Of a DNA stretch of 22,185 nucleotides, positions 4,301-19,450 are shown one piece after another. Numbering within the stretch: the first letter of the stretch is position 1; the number at the start of each line of letters is the position of its first letter. Source of the stretch: a virus (lineage: Duplodnaviria > Heunggongvirae > Uroviricota > Caudoviricetes); the IMG/VR virus record IMGVR_UViG_2606217102_000016; one strand, 5' to 3'. A model generated the notes under the pieces. The model was not told the origin of the DNA. It did no database searches and saw only the letters and a list, made by a program, of their open reading frames with translations. The translations under genes and the position numbers were made by a program.

Positions 4301-4516
4301 TCACTTTCTTAAATCTAACGATAGACGGCTAACATTTAAGTATTGTGAAATATTATCAAATGTAATCATCATTGATTTACAAAAGATACATTTTGCCCCG
4401 AAAGGATTCCTGTCAGAAACATCAAAAGATGATGTTCTATACTGAGAACCATGGCAACACGGGCATCTAAAGTGAATATGGTTTGTAATATTTTCTACCT
4501 CAAAGTGCCACAACAT
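4301..4516 (-). CDS. Candidate small zinc-ribbon protein (71 aa)
   Basis: Translation [71 protein letters not shown] has two Cys pairs (CPCC...CIFC), a zinc-ribbon-like pattern. The ATG at 4516 overlaps the cspI 3' end by 17 nt in another frame, there is no strong SD, and a terminator follows immediately. I recall small zinc-binding proteins annotated in Qin but cannot confirm identity. Confidence 0.3.
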
Positions 4517-4712
4517 GAACAGCCGCGGGGCCTTTAGGTCCGTTCTCAATACCAAATTCGACTTCCTGATTCTCAGTTAACGTTTTGAAATCGTTGCTCT
4601 GAATAGCTGAGAAATGGACAAACACATCTTTGCTACCATCTTTCGGCGTGATGAAACCAAAACCTTTTTCAGGGTTAAACCATTTCACTAAACCAGTCAT
4701 TTTGTTAGACAT
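4500..4712 (-). CDS. cspI: Cold-shock protein, CspA family (70 aa)
   Basis: Translation [70 protein letters not shown] contains the RNP1/RNP2 cold-shock motifs (KGFGFI, VFVHF). A tandem ATG at 4715/4712 is preceded by an AAGG SD. A long AT-rich upstream region (4716..5075) is consistent with the long 5'UTR typical of csp genes. Confidence 0.9.
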
Positions 4713-5075
4713 CATTATTACCTTTTGAAGAAGTTAGCCCTTGGGCAGAATGGTCCGAAAAAAAATATCAGAGAGAAAAACCAACAAGGAAATCTCAAGA
4801 GGTACAAATAATAAAATTATAACAATGACTGCTTCAGATAATTTTGTAACAAACCAGAACACCATTAACGCATGATTAACCAACCATAGCAAGGATTACT
4901 TTTGTAAAGAAAAACACACGAATGAAACAATAGCTTTATTTATTAATAAAACGTGTCATTCTGTCTAATGATCTTTTATCTTACCCTTAAGATTTCAAGG
5001 ATTTTGACTCATGGAAGAGTCCTTTTTATTTAAATTTCACATTCAGCGCTAAAAATAATCCGATTTAATATTAAT

Positions 5076-12129: not shown

Positions 12130-12381
12130 TTATTCTTCTGCAAAAGCTGAAAAGCCTGCTTTTATTCCGATCTCTTTCAGTGCCTGTAATGAAGTGACAA
12201 ACTCACCTTCGCGCAAGATAAATCCGTCTGTCACTCGACCATCCACAAAATTAATTAACGCAGCCCCATTCTTTCGCAAACACATAATGCGGTAATGACT
12301 AACAAGATTTCCATTTTCAACGCACACAGCATAGAGGCCATCTTCACAAAAATTTTTACGCAGTTCTTCGATGTTCATCAT
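12130..12381 (-). CDS. Hypothetical protein (83 aa); possibly the Rem equivalent by size and synteny
   Basis: ATG at 12381 with a GGAAGGA SD. It is 83 aa and sits immediately upstream, in operon sense, of the hok locus, as rem does in Qin. The sequence itself is not recognised. Confidence 0.5.
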   Translation of the reverse strand: MMNIEELRKNFCEDGLYAVCVENGNLVSHYRIMCLRKNGAALINFVDGRVTDGFILREGEFVTSLQALKEIGIKAGFSAFAEE

Positions 12382-12500
12382 CAGAATCCTTCCGGATAAT
12401 TAGCTCTCCCCTTTAAGGGACCATCCCTCTTATCCCTGCGCGCTACTTAAGTATTTTTGATTCTATTCCGGCACCGTCCAGAACTTCAAACGCGTTGAAA

Positions 12501-12530
12501 ATAAAAACAAAAACCCGCCGAAGCGGGTTA
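12501..12530 (-). terminator. Rho-independent terminator at the 3' end of the hok transcript
   Basis: On the minus strand AACCCGC-TTCG-GCGGGTT is followed by TTTTGTTTTTATTTTC, about 70 nt downstream of the hok stop. Confidence 0.6.
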
Positions 12531-12597
12531 AGTGCGGGTGCGTTGAGGATGCCTGCCACATCAGAGGTGGCGAGGGATTTCTCCCCCGCCGGGTCTC

Positions 12598-12753
12598 TTA
12601 CTCCTCAGGTTCGTAAGCTGTGAAGACAGCGACCTCCGTCTGCCCGGTTCGGATTCGTACCTCGCAGAGGTCTTTCCTCGTTACCAGTGCCGTCACTATG
12701 ACGGTTAAACAGATGACGATCAGGGCGATTAACATCGCCTTTTGCTGCTTCAT
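12598..12753 (-). CDS. hokD: Hok-family type I toxin (51 aa membrane peptide)
   Basis: Translation MKQQKAMLIALIVICLTVIVTALVTRKDLCEVRIRTGQTEVAVFTAYEPEE is a textbook Hok/Gef peptide and near-identical to HokD/RelF as I remember it. SD AAGGAGAAG. The track ORF 12598..12810 is an in-frame 19-codon upstream extension. Confidence 0.85.
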   Translation of the reverse strand: MKQQKAMLIALIVICLTVIVTALVTRKDLCEVRIRTGQTEVAVFTAYEPEE

Positions 12754-12874
12754 AGCCTGCTTCTCCTTGCCTTTCGGCACGTAAGAGGCTAACCTACATA
12801 TGTCTAGCATGAAATTGGCCTCAGATTAATGTTAAGCGTCTTGCAGGACGCGTAATGTTAACTGGGGCTTTTCT

Positions 12875-12910
12875 CTATCTGCCGTTGGTGTTCATGCCCG
12901 AGGCAGATAG
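12875..12910. promoter_or_regulatory. Inverted repeat in the hok leader region (candidate mRNA 5' structural element or Sok target region)
   Basis: CTATCTGCC (12875..12883) pairs with GGCAGATAG (12902..12910) across an 18-nt loop, ~120 nt upstream of the hok ATG on the transcribed strand. hok mRNAs are known to carry extensive 5' secondary structure; the specific element is not assigned. Confidence 0.3.
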
Positions 12911-13427
12911 CCTCAAGCACCCGCAGCCATTCTACTTAACTACCGTTACCTCGCCAATGTGAAATCAGTCAGAAAGGCGATCCATAAGAACAATAGCAAG
13001 ACAATAAATCGCCATTACAGCCGTAATAGCCAGCGCACATTTGAGAACCAGCACCACAACCTCCTGTATTGGACGTAGACCAGTCCTGATGAATATGAGG
13101 CTGTCTCGTCAGTGATTCAATACAACTATTGGGTATAGTTTCTCTGATTTTTTCTGTGGAAATGGGGCACAACCACTAGTCACCACCAGCACTTCTTTTA
13201 ATACGCAAAGTCCGACACAAGCTAACCTTCTAGTCCGCTTTGAGCGAAAAACAGCCATAATTTAGTGCCACGTATATAATGATAGAGCTATTCAAGCTAG
13301 CAATTCACATGTAAAAATTCAGAGGGTAGAAGCACATAGTTATAAATGTTGGCTCCATCGACAAATTGCGGTCTCAAGTACATTTATTAATGTTGCCCCC
13401 GCATTAACAAATCATCAAGGTGACGAC

Positions 13428-15215
13428 ATGGACGATATTAATATCAGCCTCGACGAACTTAACACTATTGATTTATCCCCCTTAATCCAGAGTAAGCTGC
13501 CAGTTACCTGCTTTGATATCACAAAGTATCTTTCTAGCCTAGGTGATGGAAGAGCGGAGATAAGACTGCTAACCCATATTTGCGGTTTTCACTTTCGTCC
13601 CGAAAATCCACAGGTACCATTTGGTCCGTGCTTTCAAAGCAGCCAAGGTAGATCTGCAATTCCGGATGACATTAACGGGTTGTCGCTGGAGGTACTTTCT
13701 CAATTTTGCCCGACGATAGAGCTACCCGAACTTCAAGCTCGTATTGCTGATACACTTTGGGTTCGTAAAATTGGTGGAATCCGTTTTCCTTTGCTGGCAG
13801 TCCGTGCTTATTATGCGTCCAGTATAGCTATTATGACATCGCAAGGGACGTGGGTTAGTGCTTTAGAACGCCTAGAGCGTGCGCTTAGGCTGTGTTGTTT
13901 TTTTCGAAAGCATACTGATTTCAGGGATGAATTTGATCAGCTTTCGGCACATCTACTAGCAGAGTATGAACGTACCAGAGAACAAGGCGATTCACCTTAT
14001 CCGCTGCGACTCCTGCAACTCGATATCGACTGTAAAGTGAGTGAGCCATCTTTTATTGCCCAGGAACTCCTGTTTCTGACAAAAAACTATCTGGCTCAAA
14101 AATTATTTTCATTTGCCGTCGATGCCTGTAAAACCGCAATCCCGATTGCGAATAGGTGCTGTGACAGAGATACACAGTTTGAATTCTGGCGGCTTCTTGC
14201 CGATACACATCTGGAAGAGTCAAAATTCCAAGATGGCGGTATGATTTCGGCAGCCTGCATGCAGAATGCTATTGAAGCACTGGCTAATATTCCAGGAACC
14301 CGAATAGAACGTCTTGCGCTGTATGAAGAAATGCGTGATTACCAAATCGAATCCCGTCACCAGATGTCTATCCTTCAGTCTCCCCCTCAAGATATTAGTG
14401 AGATTGTCCATCAAGCCAAGAGTCGGGTAGTCGGAAGAGATTTGTTTGATATGGTTTTCAGACTTGCGATGCTGGTCTGTCGGCCAACCAGCATTGAGAG
14501 ACTTAAGGCTCAAGCAATAGAACAAAAGGCCAACAGCATAGCTTGGATGTTTGGATCAACACATATTGATCATGAGGGAATGACACTTGCTCGCATACCC
14601 GCAGGATTGGGGATTGATGATGCAAATGGGGCAGTTATTTGGCCCATAATGATGACGAGAATGCGTATCGACCATGAGTTGGCAGTAGCTGGGCAAATTA
14701 TTCCTGCTACAGATGAGATCACAATGAAATATCCAATCTCGGAGGCGTTTTTTCGCGATATGTTCATCAATCATCCCTTCATCCCGTTTGGGCATGAAGA
14801 GTTTTTCATCAAGGGTATGGTTTGCGGTTTCAATGGAGATTTTATGACGGCATGCCACGTGTTGATTCCCCAGCTCGAAAATAGTCTGAGATATGTGGCT
14901 AAAATTAAAGGTGAGGAACCATCGCAGCTTCACGGGGACGGTTCGCAAGAGCGAAATGGACTCAAGGGATTACTAGATAATCCACTGATTATTGAAGCTT
15001 TCGGCGTAGACATAATTGGCAATCTTCAGGCCTTACTGGTAGATAAAATCTATGGTGATTTACGAAATCAACTAGCTCACGGATATGTGCCTGCCGGTTA
15101 CTACAACCAACCTCCCTGCATTTTTGCATGGTGGCTTGTATTGCACATTCTAATGAACCCTACGGCGAGATACTGGCAAGCCACTTATGGCCAAGAGAGT
15201 GAGGCTCAGACTTAA
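13428..15215 (+). CDS. Large orphan protein (595 aa) with a C-terminal HEPN-like Rx4H motif; candidate defence or abortive-infection moron
   Basis: Long ORF with ATG at 13428 and SD AAGGTGA 7 nt upstream. It is on the opposite strand to every flanking prophage gene and is bounded by non-coding DNA on both sides. No P-loop is visible. Near the C-terminus, ...DKIYGDLRNQLAHGYVPAG... fits the HEPN R-x4-6-H consensus. No other domain recognised by eye. Confidence 0.8.
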   Translation: MDDINISLDELNTIDLSPLIQSKLPVTCFDITKYLSSLGDGRAEIRLLTHICGFHFRPENPQVPFGPCFQSSQGRSAIPDDINGLSLEVLSQFCPTIELPELQARIADTLWVRKIGGIRFPLLAVRAYYASSIAIMTSQGTWVSALERLERALRLCCFFRKHTDFRDEFDQLSAHLLAEYERTREQGDSPYPLRLLQLDIDCKVSEPSFIAQELLFLTKNYLAQKLFSFAVDACKTAIPIANRCCDRDTQFEFWRLLADTHLEESKFQDGGMISAACMQNAIEALANIPGTRIERLALYEEMRDYQIESRHQMSILQSPPQDISEIVHQAKSRVVGRDLFDMVFRLAMLVCRPTSIERLKAQAIEQKANSIAWMFGSTHIDHEGMTLARIPAGLGIDDANGAVIWPIMMTRMRIDHELAVAGQIIPATDEITMKYPISEAFFRDMFINHPFIPFGHEEFFIKGMVCGFNGDFMTACHVLIPQLENSLRYVAKIKGEEPSQLHGDGSQERNGLKGLLDNPLIIEAFGVDIIGNLQALLVDKIYGDLRNQLAHGYVPAGYYNQPPCIFAWWLVLHILMNPTARYWQATYGQESEAQT

Positions 15216-18964: not shown

Positions 18965-19450
18965 AACTGTGGTGATTTTAAGGATACCACCTCGCCTGAC
19001 GTGGTTAAAAGCAGGCACACAACACGAAAGCGCACGGCGAAGTTCGTCTCACTGTACGGTGTCGTTAAATTTAATTCGACCGTGCGCTTCCGGTTGTGGC
19101 AGCCCGCAAAATGGCGCGGCGGTAAGTATGGCGGGGTTATTCCTTCCCCGTTGAGGACACCGAGTTGTCAGGTTGACCATACGCTTAAGTGACAACCCCG
19201 CTGCAACGCCCTCTGTTATCAATTTTCTGGTGGTGTTTGGCGGTATCAGTTTTACTCCGTGACTGCTCTGCCGCCGTTTTTAAAGTGAATTTTGTGATGC
19301 GGTGAATGCGGCTAAGCGCACGCGGAACAGTTAAAACCAAAAACAGTGTTATGGGTGGATTCTCTGTATCCGGCGTTAATTGTTAACTGGTTAACGTCAC
19401 CTGGAGGCACCAGGCACTGCATCACAAAATTCATTGTTGAGGACGCGATA

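Follow-up and report, generated by a model that had tools for sequence, protein, structure and literature searches.

The feature under study lies in a 22,185-nucleotide stretch of DNA, referred to as the window, and consists of a small toxin gene, a longer frame that contains it, a predicted antisense RNA gene on the opposite strand and a series of regulatory elements in the toxin mRNA (Table 1). The toxin is a small membrane protein of the Hok/Gef type (about 50 aa), recognised by the Pfam HOK_GEF profile (PF01848) with an E-value of 1.2e-23 and 82.9 bits against a cutoff of 22; its score with the NCBIfam Hok subfamily model is below the cutoff (48.5 vs 73). The identical protein carries the RefSeq name HokD, and a single accession, WP_000813254.1, is common to E. 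coli K-12 and to a strain that is 99.9% identical to the window, with one synonymous difference between the hok DNA of the window and that of K-12. The gene is preceded by the Shine-Dalgarno (SD) sequence AAGGAG (12768..12763), in agreement with the 51-residue Hok gene with a strong SD that had been predicted by eye. Over-expression of the HokD coding sequence is known to be toxic (bioRxiv 10.1101/2025.08.07.668861). Codon 47 of hok (TAC followed by G; 12613..12615, minus strand) retains intact the UACG context of Tyr47, a motif for A-to-I editing by TadA. The K-12 hokD mRNA has been reported to be 6% edited, resulting in a Tyr to Cys change at a position that is Cys in HokA and HokB (PMC12214031).

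Table 1. Features of the hok/mok/sok locus, with coordinates in the window
Feature	Coordinates	Strand	Basis or remark
Whole locus	about 12957..12498	minus	prophage of E. coli
hok mRNA promoter, TTGGCG-17 nt-TAGAAT	12929..12957	minus	consensus scan
Full-length hok(D) mRNA, about 418 nt, from the inferred +1 (12922) to the terminator T run	12505..12922	minus	Rfam and alignment
hok mRNA leader	12748..12922	minus	Rfam RF01794 'sok'
tac, 5' end, GGGUGCUUGAGG	12911..12922	minus	pairing with fbi in the MFE fold
Leader hairpin, 9-bp inverted repeat CTATCTGCC / GGCAGATAG	12875..12910	minus	fold, alignment
ucb, anti-SD box, AAAGCCCCAG	12862..12871	minus	named by analogy with R1 (PMC9841398)
mok frame, 70 aa, in frame with hok and containing it	12598..12810	minus	ORF list
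hok toxin gene, 51 aa	12598..12753	minus	ORF list; Pfam PF01848
3' UTR hairpin right after the hok stop codon	12569..12593	minus	fold
fbi, CCUCAACGCACCC, complementary to tac	12536..12548	minus	fold; just upstream of the terminator
Intrinsic terminator of hok mRNA	12498..12529	minus	stem 12529..12512 plus T run
Putative Sok promoter, TTGCCT-17 nt-TAACCT	12767..12795	plus	sequence position; R1-type counterpart
Putative Sok antisense RNA gene, 71 nt	12802..12872	plus	coordinates transferred from the 933W sokW misc_RNA

The in-frame ATG located 19 codons upstream of hok, which had been noted as a possible start for an extended form of 70 residues, is the start of mok itself. This frame overlaps hok and possesses its own SD (GAGG at about 12822..12819, 8 nt upstream of the ATG). 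Its product shows 91% identity to MokW of phage 933W and 46% identity to the 70-aa mok-frame product of an R1-type plasmid locus, and matches PHROG 251 'MokW-like host killing' with an E-value of 7.6e-33. With its SD, ATG and frame all intact, mok is complete at the level of sequence; whether a functional mok is present had been left undecided in the original prediction.

The -10 hexamer of the hok promoter ends 6 nt before the first position of the Rfam match described below, and an identical -10 is present in 933W hokW. The probable 5' end of the mRNA was placed using position 1 of the Rfam model together with the alignment to the R1-type hok mRNA start GGCGCUUGAGG. The 418-nt transcript thus delimited has a minimum free energy (MFE) of -171.2 kcal/mol, with a z-score of -6.55. 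Its leader displays the conserved structure of hok mRNA leaders, matching RF01794 with 112.7 bits (gathering score 59; E-value 2.8e-25) over model positions 1-157 of 157. Although named 'sok antitoxin', RF01794 models the hok-mRNA strand (the 5' leader including the Sok-complementary region) and not the Sok strand; its matches therefore fall on the toxin strand, and the true Sok gene lies opposite, inside the match. Downstream, the intrinsic terminator that had been predicted about 70 nt from the gene was found 68 nt past the hok stop codon, with the stem AACCCGC-TTCG-GCGGGTT comprising 7 bp, 5 of them G-C, and a 4-nt loop. The features originally placed in 12501..12910 are at, or a few bases from, their predicted positions, but the range leaves out the promoter and the initial 12 nt of the mRNA, whose 5' end is at about 12922. 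When 12380..13430 was scanned permissively with Rfam for other RNA families, the only match recovered was a sub-threshold one over the hok 3' UTR and terminator (12508..12589, minus strand; 25.1 bits vs 50) to IsrK, a Salmonella prophage sRNA; this candidate was rejected, as the match comprises two generic hairpins and is found identically in K-12. A promoter-like sequence, TTGAAG-18-TAGAAT (12460..12489, minus strand), is situated directly past the hok terminator and upstream of rem (12130..12381).

On the plus strand, the coordinates of a 71-nt Sok gene could be transferred from sokW of phage 933W. Its -35 hexamer lies opposite the hok SD, in the same place as that of the R1-type counterpart TTGCGC-17-TATCCT, and is kept as TTGCCT or TTGACC across loci. 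The predicted RNA begins with 15 single-stranded nt that cover the mok start codon, continues with a long hairpin opposite the mok SD and ends in a U tail; it folds at -28.7 kcal/mol (z-score -5.12) into the expected tail-plus-hairpin shape. Whether a Sok-like antisense RNA exists here, which could not be decided by eye, can thus be answered positively at the sequence level: a putative cis-encoded Sok gene with its own promoter spans the translation start of mok. By consensus neither the hok nor the Sok promoter is strong, and the Sok promoter falls under the threshold of the automated promoter scan, which called no plus-strand promoter.

To place these elements in a comparative framework, 61 related loci were gathered from Escherichia, Shigella, Kluyvera, Citrobacter, Photorhabdus, Pantoea and Erwinia. 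In most of those with a locatable tac motif, a complement to the 5' end occurs ~340-375 nt downstream and tracks the tac sequence, GGGU.. being accompanied by ..ACCC and GGGC.. by ..GCCC. In the MFE fold of the window mRNA, this long-range pairing joins the two ends, tac and fbi forming a 12-bp duplex interrupted by a single bulge (-21.1 kcal/mol). Of 2000 shuffled 3' UTRs, only 1 pairs equally well with tac, and within the 22-kb window the sole partner as good as fbi is tac's own complement. The UTR helices of the window's fold were tested on an alignment of 28 loci, in which 91.2% of the cells are paired, as against 39-46% when the partners are slid by 1-3 columns, a control that favours the tested structure because this structure was taken from one of the aligned sequences. 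Seventeen pairs change on both sides, and the observed value was reached by none of 500 shuffles on four of five measures and by 4 of 500 on the fifth.

Individual elements conform to this picture. The 9-bp inverted repeat that had been noticed in the leader (CTATCTGCC at 12910..12902, GGCAGATAG at 12883..12875) forms in the MFE fold and is a conserved hairpin of hok mRNA leaders, being paired in 96% of cells in the 28-locus alignment (helix 2), with 4 of its 9 pairs changed on both sides. The 3' UTR hairpin (helices 4 and 5) is 92-95% paired across the same loci, and 5 of its pairs show changes on both sides. The final stem-loop of the truncated R1 mRNA guards against 3' exonucleases (PMC9841398). 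At position 4 of the tac/fbi duplex, 18 loci have U-A, 6 have C-G and 3 have U-G. In the MFE fold, the mok SD region CUGAGGC is paired with the ucb segment AGCCCCAG, which is predicted to sequester the mok SD in the full-length mRNA; one pair of this interaction (alignment columns 78/120) is A-U in 19 loci and G-C in 8. Such compensatory changes in conserved regulatory elements across genera imply selection on a regulated system. The Rfam match, the z-score of the fold and the uniqueness of the 5'/3' complementarity in the window put the features of the locus well outside what chance would produce.

All the sequence and structure elements of hok/mok/sok are therefore present and intact, and we conclude with high confidence that they make up a complete toxin–antitoxin cassette of type I, belonging to the hokD/hokW lineage and located in the early-right (nin-like) part of a lambdoid prophage that resembles Qin. 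The window is 99.9% identical to the chromosome of E. coli strain CFSAN061763, where the gene order is dicB–(DicF)–ydfA–dicA-like–dicC–replication genes–DUF977–DUF4209 protein–hokD–rem–ydfU–Q–lysis genes–cspI. The Qin-like backbone is confirmed by the Rfam matches of the DicF sRNA (19225..19276, plus strand; 72.2 bits) and of a cspA-type thermoregulator 5' UTR belonging to the cspI gene (4454..4870, minus strand; 109.8 bits).

The cassette is an ordinary member of an already known system (hokW/mokW/sokW, hokD). It is 99.6% identical to phage mEp460 and 94% identical at the nucleotide level to the hokW/mokW/sokW loci of the Stx2 phages 933W and Sp5 (VT2-Sakai), with the latter similarity extending over the promoter -10, leader, mok, hok and the 3' UTR up to fbi. 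The loci also agree in the promoter, start site and hairpin of Sok, in its length of 71 nt and in their setting in a lambdoid phage. In contrast, there are 4 amino-acid differences at the C-terminus of Hok (TAYEPEE vs VDYESEK) and about 6 substitutions in the stretch from the mok SD to codon 3, which corresponds to the Sok 5' tail. Differences also affect the -35 region and the terminator, and the two copies occupy different places in the phage genome, that of 933W being near the right end beside L0136 and that of the window between the replication genes and rem-ydfU-Q. Since the GenBank record of 933W annotates mokW, hokW and the 71-nt sokW antisense RNA, and the Sp5 copy has been characterised experimentally, the discovery value of the present locus is small. 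In Sp5, toxicity, an antitoxin action of the 71-nt sokW and a dependence on RNase III and Hfq were demonstrated for hokW-sokW; Sok is gone after mitomycin C, and phage yield is halved in a hokW-sokW deletion mutant (PMC8621323). The more distant hok/sok (parB) of plasmid R1 corresponds element for element, including tac, the leader hairpin, ucb, the mok SD, an in-frame mok (18 or 19 codons plus hok), dcb, the Sok promoter opposite the hok SD, the 3' hairpin and fbi. It differs in showing only 46% protein identity and a shorter Sok hairpin, and in being plasmid-borne with proven post-segregational killing, unlike the prophage-borne window copy.

By homology with R1 hok/sok (PMC9841398) and Sp5 hokW-sokW, a mechanism can be proposed as follows. 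The weak promoter would produce a stable mRNA of about 418 nt, locked in its full-length form by tac–fbi and ucb–mok SD pairing, so that it would be neither translated nor bound by Sok. Slow trimming from the 3' end would take off fbi and allow the leader to refold, exposing the mok SD and the Sok target hairpin. Abundant, unstable 71-nt Sok made from the opposite strand would then pair over the mok start region, and RNase III would cut the duplex. If Sok synthesis were to stop, whether because the element is lost, transcription is shut off or the prophage is induced, mok would be translated with hok coupled to it, and the 51-aa Hok membrane peptide would depolarise the cell and kill or lyse it. 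The refolding step is proposed from homology and manual base-pairing; the MFE fold of the 3'-truncated mRNA yields a local tac (5') hairpin and not the tac–ucb pairing expected of the active form.

The comparison with K-12, where hokD (relF) forms part of relBEF, bears on the most conspicuous element of the original prediction, namely a hok module without relBE. Searches of 12768..13427 with the RelB, RelE, YdfV and FlxA proteins of K-12 (tblastn, word size 2) gave a best E-value of 0.13, and window-wide tblastn with the same proteins no match better than 0.25 (RelB/RelE best 0.25-0.37, at sites elsewhere in the window). The absence of relBE upstream thus survives a sensitive search for remnants, which returned chance-level matches only, and the reading of the locus as hok without relBE is supported. 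The trait that marks K-12 relBEF, relB and relE immediately upstream of hokD and co-transcribed with it, is absent from the window, and so are ydfV and flxA, which together with relB-relE occupy that place in K-12. The two loci otherwise share the prophage backbone, with rem, a 92-aa ORF and ydfU downstream of hokD in the same order, and the identical Hok protein. On aligning the window to the K-12 relBE-hokD region, as had been suggested, nucleotide homology (blastn; 98.4% identity) begins only at 12767, 14 nt before the hok ATG, and runs through the 3' UTR, fbi and terminator into rem. At the breakpoint (12767/12768) the Sok -35 hexamer is disrupted, and K-12 is left with no hok promoter, tac or ucb, no SD or start codon for mok, and neither a Sok gene nor a promoter for it. 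The Rfam check that had likewise been suggested gives the full-length match in the window reported above and, in the K-12 region used as a negative control, no match to RF01794 even at E<=10.

The framing of the locus relative to K-12 has hence to be reversed. Because the leader that K-12 lacks has homologues in the hok loci of plasmids and of other genera, the window state is to be read as the complete one, and the K-12 relBE-hokD state as rearranged and truncated. The 207-nt leader (12754..12960) was detected in 4279 of 5426 complete E. coli genomes (at least 80% query coverage), with a median of 2 copies and up to 9, a count that takes in hokW-like paralogues of other prophages and plasmids. 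With the same coverage, a 201-nt probe across the K-12 relE–hokD junction was found in 1167 of the 5426, in a collection rich in laboratory K-12 derivatives. The complete form is thus the more widespread, and the apparent oddity of a missing relBE arises because K-12 was used as the reference. For hokD, K-12 misleads as a reference, since the form linked to relBE is rearranged and in the minority.

The opposite polarity, with the window state derived from an ancestor that carried relBE-hokD as in K-12 and later lost relBE by deletion, might be suggested by the rem, ydfU, dicA/C and dicF genes that flank the locus in both the window and K-12 Qin. We regard it as highly improbable, since a deletion could not regenerate the 155-nt leader that is absent from K-12 and homologous to the hok leaders of R1, Photorhabdus, Pantoea and Erwinia; the lack of any relB or relE remnant and the K-12 junction running through the Sok -35 hexamer also speak against it. 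It is equally hard to credit that the locus is an orphan toxin like K-12 hokD, in which a hok ORF is accompanied by a leftover leader with no functional Sok or mok. Such an impression could be gained from the failure of the automated scan to call a plus-strand promoter and from RefSeq, which annotates hokD alone at the locus. However, the full-length Rfam match has no parallel in K-12, the SD, ATG and frame of mok are intact, and the Sok promoter, start site and hairpin are nearly base-for-base those of the annotated and experimentally confirmed sokW (PMC8621323). A practical point concerns annotation: with genome annotation, RefSeq included, marking the hok CDS alone and the Rfam 'sok' match lying on the toxin strand, the antitoxin may be thought missing or be put on the wrong strand.

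A complete cassette could nevertheless be physiologically silent, that is, tightly off, with no killing on loss or response to shut-off, or with a subtle role, e.g. in lysis timing. This reading is more serious than either of the preceding ones, though we still think it the less probable outcome. Native chromosomal hokA, hokB and hokC failed to show post-segregational killing and rifampicin activation in earlier work (bioRxiv 10.1101/2025.08.07.668861), so that an intact sequence is no guarantee of killing, and it is by analogy that we infer the expression, RNA processing, toxicity in its own context and biological role of the window locus. The weak consensus promoters point in the same direction, and up to 9 related copies per genome argue against strong lethality of each. 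Against silence stand the conservation of all the regulatory elements, with compensatory changes across genera, and the activity of the 94%-identical hokW-sokW, whose deletion has a measurable cost in phage yield (PMC8621323). For the complete cassette in the window, the role is likely to be prophage stabilisation or an aid to lysis on induction, as reported for hokW-sokW.

Several further observations concern the neighbourhood of the cassette. The divergently oriented neighbour (13428..15215, plus strand) encodes a 595-aa DUF7380/DUF4209 protein that matches the PADLOC candidate defence system PDC-S39 with an E-value of 2.9e-102. Related prophages carry other cargo at this point between DUF977 and the hok element, namely an FRG protein, ParA with a hypothetical protein, DUF262 with TPR, an acetyltransferase or a methyltransferase; the slot has the look of a variable hotspot for cargo or defence genes, with hok/sok as its flank.

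A conserved element of 290 bp (13250..12960, minus strand) directly adjoins the hok promoter on its upstream side. Matches to it were found in 1654 of the 5426 complete E. coli genomes, those sampled being unannotated, and it is present in full, again unannotated, in the phages mEp460, Evi and Tritos. Phage HannyBb matches only the half of the element that carries an ORF, and two hypothetical CDS are annotated there on the opposite strand. This ORF (12965..13054, minus strand) has 29 codons and encodes the hydrophobic peptide MLVLKCALAITAVMAIYCLAIVLMDRLSD; AGGAGG lies 5 nt upstream, with a possible anti-SD, and a sequence in the element, TTGAAT-17-CATATT, resembles a promoter. All of 12 homologues keep the ORF open, and among them 12 synonymous and 10 non-synonymous distinct variants occur, against an expected synonymous fraction of 0.26 (p 0.004 if mutation is uniform, with a weaker signal under a bias towards transitions). 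RNAalifold detected no covariation on either strand of the element, because the sequences are too similar; its small ORFs had no match in Pfam or PHROGs, and a full-text literature search for the 29-codon peptide gave no match. The ORF may encode a small membrane protein or toxin. That the element might constitute a second, undescribed type I-like small membrane-toxin module, travelling with hok/sok in about 30% of E. coli genomes beside a variable defence-cargo slot, is a speculative notion that we consider rather unlikely.

Finally, five near-identical mok/hokD loci (91-97%) were recovered from records assigned to a Veillonella parvula MAG, Xanthomonas pisi, Acinetobacter idrijaensis, Candidatus Scatousia and a Haemophilus MAG, mostly on short contigs; these most likely represent E. 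coli contamination or mis-binning rather than a real host range.
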